Shown: positions 17,662-38,848 of the stretch, one piece after another
How positions within the stretch are numbered: the first letter of the stretch is position 1
Layout of the letters: the number at the start of each line of letters is the position of its first letter
DNA from: a bacterium
GTDB taxonomy: Bacteria > Patescibacteriota > Minisyncoccia > Minisyncoccales > JAGGXC01
Assembly (NCBI GenBank): GCA_021157625.1
Contig: JAGGWD010000001.1
Coordinates: 1-38,848 of the forward strand
Reading direction: 5' to 3'
Length of the DNA stretch: 38,848 nt
Notes under the pieces: generated by a model
Databases searched by the model: none
Told to the model about the DNA's origin: nothing
The model's input: only the letters and a program-made list of their open reading frames with translations
Program-made: the position numbers and the translations under genes

Positions 17662-17691
17662 TTGACAAATCTAATCTAAATATGTTATAAT
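17662..17691 (+). promoter_or_regulatory. Consensus sigma70 promoter of the inserted ORF
   Basis: TTGACA, 18 bp including TG, TATAAT. Confidence 0.75.
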
Positions 17692-17717
17692 AAATCTAAA
17701 AGGAGGTGAAAAGTATA

Positions 17718-17966
17718 TTGAGAAAATTATTGACTCTCTGTCCTCCACGAGATCTCGGACTAATAATAGTAACCCAAGGAGATCAATCCTGTTCTCATGA
17801 ATTCGAAGAAGTAAAATGGGATAGAGAACGATTTGGCCCTGATGTGGTAGATATGGATCCTGATCCTGGAGGAGCGATAGCTTTCCCAAAAGCCACTTAT
17901 AAATATCTTTTTCGTTGCAAGAAATGTGGAGCAGAAGTAATCAAAAGCGTTAGGGCACTAATCTAA
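17718..17966 (+). CDS. Small hypothetical protein with CxH...CxxC putative Zn-binding motif
   Basis: CSHEF...CKKCG; AAGGAGGTG 9 nt before in-frame TTG 17718; own promoter and terminator. Confidence 0.7.
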   Translation: MRKLLTLCPPRDLGLIIVTQGDQSCSHEFEEVKWDRERFGPDVVDMDPDPGGAIAFPKATYKYLFRCKKCGAEVIKSVRALI

Positions 17967-18064: not shown

Positions 18065-18232
18065 TTATCTCTTTACTTCTTTATGAACCGTATGCTTTCT
18101 GCAAAACTTACAGAATTTCTTCAATTCTAACTTCTGCTCATGCAACTTCTTTGATTTATGAGTAAAATAATTAATTCTTTTACACTCCTGACACTGGAGT
18201 TTTACAAATGGTTTTTTCTTTTTCTTTGCCAT
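18065..18232 (-). CDS. rpmG: 50S ribosomal protein L33 (Zn-binding C+ type)
   Basis: LQCQECKRINY...LELKKFCKFCRKHTVHKE; start ATG 18232. Confidence 0.96.
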   Translation of the reverse strand: MAKKKKKPFVKLQCQECKRINYFTHKSKKLHEQKLELKKFCKFCRKHTVHKEVKR

Positions 18233-37648: not shown

Positions 37649-37745
37649 TATGTTAATCTTAATTACTTAATTATAACAGAAAAAGAATTAACAAATAAGA
37701 CTACATAAGTAAAATTCTTATTTTTGAGGCTCATTTTCACCAAAC

Positions 37746-37771
37746 AAAAAAACTCTGCTTTAAGCAGAGTT
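37746..37771 (-). terminator. Intrinsic terminator directly after tRNA-Ala
   Basis: AACTCTGCTT/AAGCAGAGTT hairpin followed by a U-run on the minus strand. Confidence 0.8.
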
Positions 37772-37779
37772 GTTATTTG

Positions 37780-37853
37780 TGGACCCGAGCGGACTCGAAC
37801 CGCTGACCTCCTCATTGCAAATGAGGCGTTCTAGCCAACTGAACTACGGGCCC
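37780..37853 (-). tRNA. tRNA-Ala(UGC)
   Basis: GGGCCCG/CGGGTCC with G3:U70; loop TTTGCAA. Confidence 0.97.
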
Positions 37854-37863
37854 GACTTATAAG

Positions 37864-37936
37864 TGGGCGTGGGAGGAATCGAACCTCCGACCTCTTCTTT
37901 ATCAGAGAAGCGCTCTAACCACTGAGCCACACGCCC
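37864..37936 (-). tRNA. tRNA-Ile(GAU)
   Basis: GGGCGTG/CACGCCC stem; loop CTGATAA. Confidence 0.97.
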
Positions 37937-38139
37937 AAGTTCTAATAACTTTATTTTAATAAAAAATAAAAAACTCGTAAAGAGTTTTTATTTTTGTGGA
38001 TATTTTTGAGTTGCTCCAAACCTATTATCCTGAAGAAGGCTTACGCCCTCCTCAAGAGATCGATCTTTTGGGTGCTCGATCAATACCCTACAATTAAAGT
38101 TCGAATTCAAAACTTTAATTGTAGTCGACCAAAAAACTA

Positions 38140-38848
38140 AAATAAATTGATCCATCCCCAGGTTCCCCTAGGGATGCCTTGTTACGACTTCGTCCTAATC
38201 ACTAGCCCTACCTTGGGCCCCGGCAAAGCGGGGACTTCGGGTATTGCTAGCTCTTCTGACGTGACGGGCGGTGAGTACAAGACCCAGGAACGTATTCATC
38301 GCCACATGGCTGATTGGCGATTACTAGCGATTCCGGCTTCATGGGGTCGAGTTGCAGACCCCAATCCGAACTGGGACCGGCTTTTAGGGATTAGCTCCGC
38401 CTTACGGCTTCGCAACCCGCTGTACCGGCCATTGTACCACGTGTGCAGCCCAGGGCATCAAAGGGCCATGCTGATTTGGCGTCATCCCCACCTTCCTCCC
38501 GATTGTCTCGGGCAGTCCTCTATGACACGTGAAACATAGAGTAGGGGTTGCGCAGGTTTCCCCATTTAAGGGAGCACCTCACGGCACCTGCTGACGACAA
38601 CCATGCAGCACCTGTGCTAGTGTCCGTGTGGAATCTCTACCTTTCAGTAGAGTTTCACTAGCATGTCAAGCCCTGGTAAGGTTCTTCGGTTATTATCGAA
38701 TTAAGCCACATGATCCACCGCTTGTGTGAGCCCCCGTCTATTCCTTTGAGTTTCACCGTTGCCGGCGTACTTCCCAGGCGGGGCACTTAACGCGTTAGCT
38801 TCGCCACTGCAAGGGTCGACACTTGCAATAGCTAGTGCCCATCGTTTA
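38140..38848 (-). rRNA. rrs: 16S rRNA, 3' about 700 nt (partial; 3' end approximate), lacking the anti-SD
   Basis: Universal motifs AAACTCAAAGGAATAGACGG, TGTACTCACCGCCCGTC, AAGTCGTAACAAGG and h45 with GGAA loop, then GGATCA-ATTTATTT. Confidence 0.98.

Follow-up and report, generated by a model that had tools for sequence, protein, structure and literature searches.

A 16S rRNA gene without an anti-Shine-Dalgarno motif in a genome of the Patescibacteriota

Few short sequences are as conserved in bacteria as the anti-Shine-Dalgarno (anti-SD) sequence, and its loss therefore marks a ribosome that chooses its start codons in another way. The nearest described case is that of the Parcubacteria: Tsurumaki et al. 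(2022, RNA 28:1041, PMC9297842) detected CCTCCT in only 48% of them and report that anti-SD loss overlaps the uL1-lacking group of Parcubacteria, in which SD helices are probably not formed. Starts are also selected blind to SD in Flavobacterium johnsoniae, where starts are reported to have little structure and a Kozak-like context with A at -3, -6, -12, and -13 (Baez et al. 2019, PMC6847099; Naeem et al. 2024, PMC10798248); Bacteroidia keep the anti-SD, hidden under bS21, bS18, and bS6, and still use it for regulation of rpsU (PMC13000453, PMC9976891). The small-subunit rRNA of mammalian mitochondria has no anti-SD after helix 45 (PMC10582724), and the mRNAs of these organelles are likewise without SD. 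Another known use of SD pairing is at prfB: in E. coli prfB a duplex-forming element lies a few nucleotides upstream of the +1 frameshift site CUU UGA, and in an E. coli 70S lysate a hairpin engineered upstream of CUUUGA stimulated +1 shifting there (Huang, Cho, Chang 2018, PMC6321510).

Here we describe a 16S rRNA gene without the anti-SD in a genome (G000; 609,920 bases in 22 contigs, 95.4% complete) of which the window, the whole stretch of 38,848 nucleotides that was analyzed, is one complete contig (C19). We consider it very probable that this is the genuine single 16S gene of one of the uL1-lacking Patescibacteria (Parcubacteria/Paceibacteria-type), that CCUCCUU has been replaced by A/U, that starts are chosen without SD pairing, and that the tail most likely decayed by drift. 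With the anti-SD-less Parcubacteria of Tsurumaki et al. the genome shares its place in the CPR, a small size, a 16S 3' end without CCTCCT, and a uL1 that was not found: PF00687 matched in none of five genomes searched (G000, G044, G138, G036, and G035) and in 14 of 14 controls. It is one more member of the published anti-SD-less group, with nothing essential different. The loss is real but already known for the lineage (PMC9297842), and since the trait is a published property of that lineage its novelty is low; what we add to Tsurumaki et al. are controlled genome-wide SD counts, a failed test of pairing between the new tail and mRNA leaders, the context of Era and prfB, and a minority of SD-like sites.

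The 3' end of the 16S rRNA gene and its relatives

The 3' part of a 16S rRNA gene fills the last 709 bases of the window (38140..38848, minus strand), matching Rfam RF00177 over model positions 803-1533 at 689.7 bits (E 6.7e-217; cut-off 50); the contig end cuts the gene, and its 5' half is absent from the assembly. Helix 45 (h45), with its GGAA loop, is intact (38152..38176, minus strand; the Rfam alignment marks no non-standard pair), and the conserved GGAUCA, which in other bacteria stands before the anti-SD, is placed at 38148..38153 (minus strand) by the Rfam alignment together with a pattern match at 38148-38185. The gene reads GGAUCA-AUUUAUUUUAG where the usual bacterial form is GGAUCA-CCUCCUU, and the Rfam alignment sets AUUUAUUU opposite the family consensus CCUCCUUu. 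Read in the RNA sense, GGAUCA is followed by AUUUAUUUUAGUUUUUUGGUCGAC, and the alignment and this reading together delimit an A/U-only tail, AUUUAUUUUAGUUUUUU, at 38131..38147 (minus strand). Its first five bases, AUUUA (38147-38143), stand at the place of the expected CCUCC; all four C's are substituted, and the tail is of the same length as the consensus. By covariance score and by h45 the gene belongs to the bacterial 16S family, of whose features it lacks the CCUCC after GGAUCA. Reading by eye from 38147 down to tRNA-Ile revealed no CCUCC in the RNA sense, the sole CCTCC-like string in that interval being on the opposite strand.

Downstream on the minus strand lie tRNA-Ile (GAU; 37863..37936, ARAGORN and Rfam), tRNA-Ala (UGC; 37779..37853, ARAGORN), and, 3' of the latter, a terminator-like hairpin (about 37770-37746). 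Between the 16S gene and tRNA-Ile, RNAfold places a spacer hairpin (38076..38132, minus strand) whose base is a conserved GUCGAC box (38129-38124); the segment 38146..38040 folds at -28.1 kcal/mol, and on this model the hairpin would leave about 15-17 nt of the precursor's tail single-stranded. The box is probably a processing element. Exact GTCGA occurs at most 60 nt from GGAUCA in 29 of 45 distinct trailers of relatives, against about 1 in shuffles, and leader-trailer pairing of 16S in relatives gave duplexes that were long and messy. We also observed that the GUCGAC box lies 15-24 nt 3' of GGAUCA in most relatives. Beyond the 16S-tRNA-Ile-tRNA-Ala unit (its tRNA-Ala end and terminator-like hairpin at 37745-37853 of the window, minus strand) comes a pilin-like gene instead of the 23S gene, which was located on a different contig (C9:5-3323), where 2,849 bases span model positions 15-2044 and thus include roughly 800 extra bases.

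The initial annotation, made from the letters alone, had read GGAUCA without CCUCC after an intact h45, and the Rfam alignment and three DNA data sets bear this reading out. Truncation of the gene at the contig end, with its 5' half missing, and the frequent loss of rRNA genes from metagenome-assembled genomes are what could be urged for an artefact, in which a misassembly, a misbinned contig, or a pseudogene was recovered and the true CCUCC-bearing 16S went unassembled. We regard this as scarcely credible, given a score of 689.7 bits with h45 intact, the same tail in three data sets, and the absence of CCUCC in relatives. Three DNA runs, each from a different study and one of them perhaps the source sample itself, gave Logan contigs that span 38130-38180 with the letters of the window, none with CCUCC (X1 record 2, 37894-38372; X2 record 9, 37711-38343; X3 record 18, 38060-38286), and no difference is listed from 38056 to 38291. 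The genome contains one 16S piece and one h45-like site, and no second rrn copy with CCUCC. The single RNA run compared (X9, as Logan contigs, which cannot reveal ends) has matches limited to conserved parts of the 16S.

Relatives show that loss of CCUCC is common to the order. The h45 pattern was found in 103 genomes of an even sample of 201 from the same order, and h45 followed by CCTCC in 2 of the 201 (G044 and G138), that is, in 2 of the 103 that are readable; the lack of CCUCC in the remaining 101 is hard to reconcile with an artefact, as are G036 and G037, two genomes assembled as single contigs, in each of which the one 16S match is accompanied by a CCUCC-less tail. A separate search of 61 genomes of the order gave, among the loci returned, 24 readable 16S 3' ends, with CCUCCUUA in G044 only. 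The case of G138 is less clear. Its CCUCC-bearing 16S may be misbinned, since the piece lies on a contig of only 1,664 nt and its h45 is unlike that of its congener G097, which has a CCUCC-less tail; the prfB hairpin of G138, discussed below, is the same as that of G097. Among the order tails listed, 43 are distinct, with nothing conserved beyond A/U richness and with variation even within a family. Many of them are of the form CUACAUUU, UUACAUUU, or CUUCAUUU, which look like point-mutated versions of CCUCCUUU, and fully A/U tails, as in G000, are also among them. A sample of 151 genomes from the wider class yielded the h45 pattern in 68 and h45 followed by CCTCC in 27, so that about 40% of class genomes with a readable h45 retain CCUCC, a share near the 48% reported by Tsurumaki et al. 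(PMC9297842). Loss of CCUCC is an inherited trait of the lineage.

Start regions and Shine-Dalgarno motifs

SD use was scored with crude gene calls (ORFs of at least 300 nt, first ATG, longest first), which in G000 gave 540 calls covering 87% of the genome, and with the SD-like 4-mers GGAG, GAGG, and AGGA at -20..-3. These 4-mers precede 9.7% of 534 calls in G000; the four control windows set upstream have them in 12.2-16.1%, and windows drawn at random from the genome in 13.8%. The same script applied to 50 kb of E. coli K-12 found them before 60% of 55 calls, against 4-13% in controls, and so the method is able to detect an SD signal. Similar results were obtained for three other CCUCC-less genomes of the order, G036 (11.6% of 329; controls 12.5-14.3%), G047 (6.2% of 291; controls 10.3-14.1%), and G035 (9.5% of 328; controls 14.6-18.3%), and G265, a CCUCC-less genome of 56% GC, has a mild excess (17.6% of 85, against 7-13%). 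The CCUCC-keeping genomes G044 (7.1% of 309; controls 10.7-12.6%), G277 (8.3% of 72; controls 9.7-15.3%), and G344 (5.1% of 79; controls 6.3-20.3%) lie below their controls as well, and G227 (9.7% of 93) slightly over its own (7.5-8.6%). Because these four genomes that keep CCUCC are also without an SD signal, it seems that genes stopped using SD before the tail disappeared.

These counts agree with the initial annotation, which had proposed SD-independent initiation from the start regions of core genes. Pfam confirmed the identities of those genes (lepA, pyrG, dnaK, dnaJ, grpE, hsp20, khpA, lysS, serS, and pgi/pmi), and the 35 nt upstream of the named genes are A/U-rich and have no SD-like 4-mer; nor are GGAG and the other SD-like 4-mers enriched before genes across G000. 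The frequency of G, about 0.18 far upstream, is down to 0.10-0.14 at -12..-3, that of A is 0.49-0.54 at -6..-2, with A at -3 and at -6 in 54% of genes each, and the mean folding energy of 40-nt segments is -2.4 kcal/mol at the start codon against about -4 to -4.4 kcal/mol at least 60 nt away. The genome has these marks of SD-independent, Bacteroidia-like initiation: no SD enrichment, low structure, and A-rich starts, with the difference that Bacteroidia keep the anti-SD sequence under proteins whereas G000 no longer has it. G000 encodes IF3 and a 360-aa bS1 with four S1 domains, and a 71-aa bS21-like ORF scores 25.4 bits, under the cut-off of 27. We would picture a 30S subunit that, aided by the four-domain bS1, loads on the unstructured, A-rich region around AUG, after which the start would be fixed by initiator tRNA and initiation factors. 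Apart from these, we noticed by eye a small rpmG (bL33)-like ORF, MAKKKKKPFVKLQCQECK..., between tRNA-Thr and tRNA-Trp (18065-18229 of the window, minus strand), which falls below the 90-aa ORF list used in the Pfam scan.

A minority of mRNAs may be leaderless. The motif TANAAT begins at -14..-12 before 35 of 534 genes, against a background of about 2 per position, which is the position expected of a -10 box if an mRNA is leaderless or nearly so; a similar peak was seen in G036 and G035. Mammalian mitochondrial mRNAs are mostly leaderless. Most genes of G000, unlike those of mitochondria, appear to be leadered or internal to operons.

Pairing might have been changed rather than lost, and the initial annotation had raised, as a weaker idea, base pairing of A-rich leaders (AAUAAAU, for example) with the new U-rich tail (AUUUAUUUU). 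The tail would then serve as a weak replacement for the SD system. The 6-mers complementary to the tail (AAATAA, AATAAA, and AAAATA) are indeed among the commonest at -22..-1, but other A/T 6-mers are equally enriched, and ratios to the intergenic background are 0.9-1.9. Duplex energies were compared in a 6x5 matrix of leader sets against tails, alongside this k-mer enrichment. Relative to control windows, the tail of G000 gains -0.34 kcal/mol on the leaders of its own genome, yet it gains -0.34 to -0.56 kcal/mol on the leaders of G044, G036, G047, and G035, and in no genome does the own tail stand out on the own leaders. A perfect 8-nt duplex is worth just -2.0 kcal/mol; the best tail-leader duplexes have a mean of about -2 kcal/mol, where the E. 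coli SD control has -6, and the 43 distinct tails listed for the order, none conserved beyond A/U richness, also speak against such pairing. The gain is an effect of composition and not of co-evolving pairing. With no genome-specific signal in the cross-genome energies, we reject tail-leader pairing, which we now consider very unlikely.

The picture of a fully SD-blind genome is contradicted by about 8 genes with a perfect GGAGGUGA at SD-like spacing. Counted over both strands, GGAGGTGA occurs 31 times in G000, 11 of them outside called ORFs, and 8 of these 11 are followed, after 4-8 nt, by an ATG or TTG with an open frame of 72-631 codons. Their carriers include an SPFH protein, a NosD-like protein, a 631-aa protein of no known function, and a CDP-alcohol phosphatidyltransferase; pyrF, yidC, and topA have only weaker 5-mer matches. 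One site is in the window: the perfect extended SD-like sequence AAGGAGGUGA / AAGGAGGTGA (17700..17709, plus strand) lies 8 nt upstream of a TTG (17718), the first codon of a Cys-containing ORF of 82 codons that ends at 17966 and is followed by a terminator hairpin, and it is downstream of TTGACA (17662-17667) and TATAAT (17686-17691), which are 18 nt apart. The stretch 17662-17966 (plus strand) looks like a small independent gene, one of the approximately eight with a textbook SD.

These sites could be served by a residual reader, either an RNA other than 16S that bears CCUCC or a protein that binds the motif, but we find this improbable and favor the reading that they are relics, tolerated once no anti-SD remains to bind them. 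The eight sites 4-8 nt before ORF starts do speak for a reader, as does the location of 11 of the 31 in non-ORF DNA, which makes up about 12% of the genome. Counts of matches of at least 7 nt to AAGGAGGTGATC at -20..-3 also exceed those of control windows in four of the five CCUCC-less genomes (G000, 8/534 against 2-4; G036, 7/329 against 0-1; G035, 6/328 against 0-2; and G265, 4/85 against 0-1), the fifth, G047, having 1/291, not above its controls, and in none of the four CCUCC-keeping genomes (G044, 0/309; G227, 1/93; G277, 0/72; G344, 0/79), although the numbers are small and the genomes related. The histories of single sites point both ways. The motif before the CDP-alcohol phosphatidyltransferase gene is retained in two congeners, which a reader would explain, but in G004 and G005, which belong to other genera of the family, only a decayed AGGAGA is left, which fits the slow loss of a relic or, with the anti-SD gone, relaxed avoidance of GGAGG, and the SPFH gene is absent from the four nearest relatives, as expected of an acquired gene. 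Nor was a free non-coding site bearing CCUCC found in G000, where all 11 non-ORF TCACCTCC sites are the same 11 motifs seen on the opposite strand. Textbook SDs on a handful of genes with no known reader in the cell are a small puzzle.

Era and the prfB frameshift site

Two further known users of the anti-SD are Era and the frameshift site of prfB. Era binds GAUCA plus CCUCC, and most CPR are reported to have lost era (PMC10582724). The Era model TIGR00436 reaches 40.1 bits in G000, below its cut-off of 116.25, and over the GTPase domain only, a difference from mammalian mitochondria, which have the Era homologue ERAL1. None of 28 CCUCC-keeping and none of 44 CCUCC-less genomes of the class scored over the cut-off for Era, and all of 10 bacterial controls did. 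Being missing from both groups, it was rejected as the factor that decides which genomes keep CCUCC. Eight class relatives (G300, G327, G208, G234, G266, G283, G250, and G207) have ORFs of about 190-220 aa that match only the GTPase half of Era; such ORFs score 45-64 bits, below the cut-off, and may be KH-less remnants of Era or another small GTPase.

The prfB +1 frameshift site, CUU UGA C, lies outside the window in the RF2 locus of G000 (C9:44674-44719, minus strand), and CUU UGA is present in all 30 RF2 loci of the order (G000 plus 29 relatives). Just upstream is a 6-bp hairpin, separated from CUU by 4 nt, which can be drawn as CCUCC/GGAGG in G000 and as CCAUC/GAUGG, CCAGU/ACUGG, or CCGUC/GACGG in relatives. 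An ungapped alignment has 93.9% of its cells paired; shuffles gave 78.7 +/- 1.9%, none of 500 being as high, and sliding the partner strand gave 35-62%. Three pairs change on both sides, giving 27 double-change cells. The hairpin is predicted to stimulate frameshifting. As in E. coli prfB and the engineered constructs (PMC6321510), a duplex-forming element stands a few nucleotides upstream of CUU UGA; the difference from the E. coli prfB SD is that the element here would be a natural mRNA hairpin with compensatory changes, acting on a ribosome without an anti-SD. The words hairpin and Patescibacteria are absent from the main texts of two surveys of prfB frameshift sites (PMC12421855, PMC10798248), and Parcubacteria go unmentioned in the literature matches listed on release factor 2 or programmed frameshifting.

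An association between this hairpin and the lack of CCUCC, seen in the first nine class genomes, vanished in a larger sample. Among 26 CCUCC-keeping genomes examined, 13 have a Y-UU-UGA site, with a stem of at least 5 bp in 11 of the 13, and among 33 CCUCC-less genomes of other orders 21 have a site, with such a stem in 19 of the 21, the non-detections of sites in these samples including at least one miss by the script (G281, where an earlier pass had found one). Since the hairpin is not confined to CCUCC-less genomes, it cannot alone explain which lineages lost the tail.

A second release factor is encoded elsewhere in G000 (C12:3063-3818; 251 aa), beginning right after rpmE. It is RF1-like by its PxT motif, PKT, and is without the N-terminal part of the PCRF domain, the profile match starting from position 76; short RF1-like forms of 243-297 aa were also seen in several relatives.

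A proposed order of events: loss of function before loss of sequence

The very probable reading set out at the start, of a genuine 16S without an anti-SD, would see the ancestral CCUCCUU tail replaced by A/U base for base, at the same length, and most likely by drift, after all known jobs of the anti-SD had gone in the wider class. Those jobs would be initiation led by SD, which is absent even in genomes with CCUCC; the binding of Era, which was not found; and the SD at prfB, where there is a small hairpin instead. The order of events, jobs lost and then the tail decayed, is one that we infer from the CCUCC-keeping relatives, which are without SD use or Era and mostly have the prfB hairpin, and which therefore suggest that decay came after the loss of function.

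A more specific account can be offered only tentatively, as one that we find nearly as plausible as not but lean slightly against. According to it, the covarying hairpin took over the role of SD:anti-SD pairing at prfB across the class; with no SD initiation and no Era, the anti-SD was then left without a job, its decay followed separately in many lineages, among them nearly all of this order, and the perfect GGAGGUGA sites are tolerated relics. If this is true, the hairpin would be a natural cis element standing in for pairing with rRNA, the loss of a sequence that the SD-blind Bacteroidia keep would be explained, and perfect GGAGGUGA sites would persist only once there is no anti-SD left to bind them. 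As a practical matter, gene finders that score SD motifs will set starts wrongly in these genomes. More generally, the context provided by the CCUCC-keeping relatives gives a testable account of how a conserved sequence becomes dispensable.
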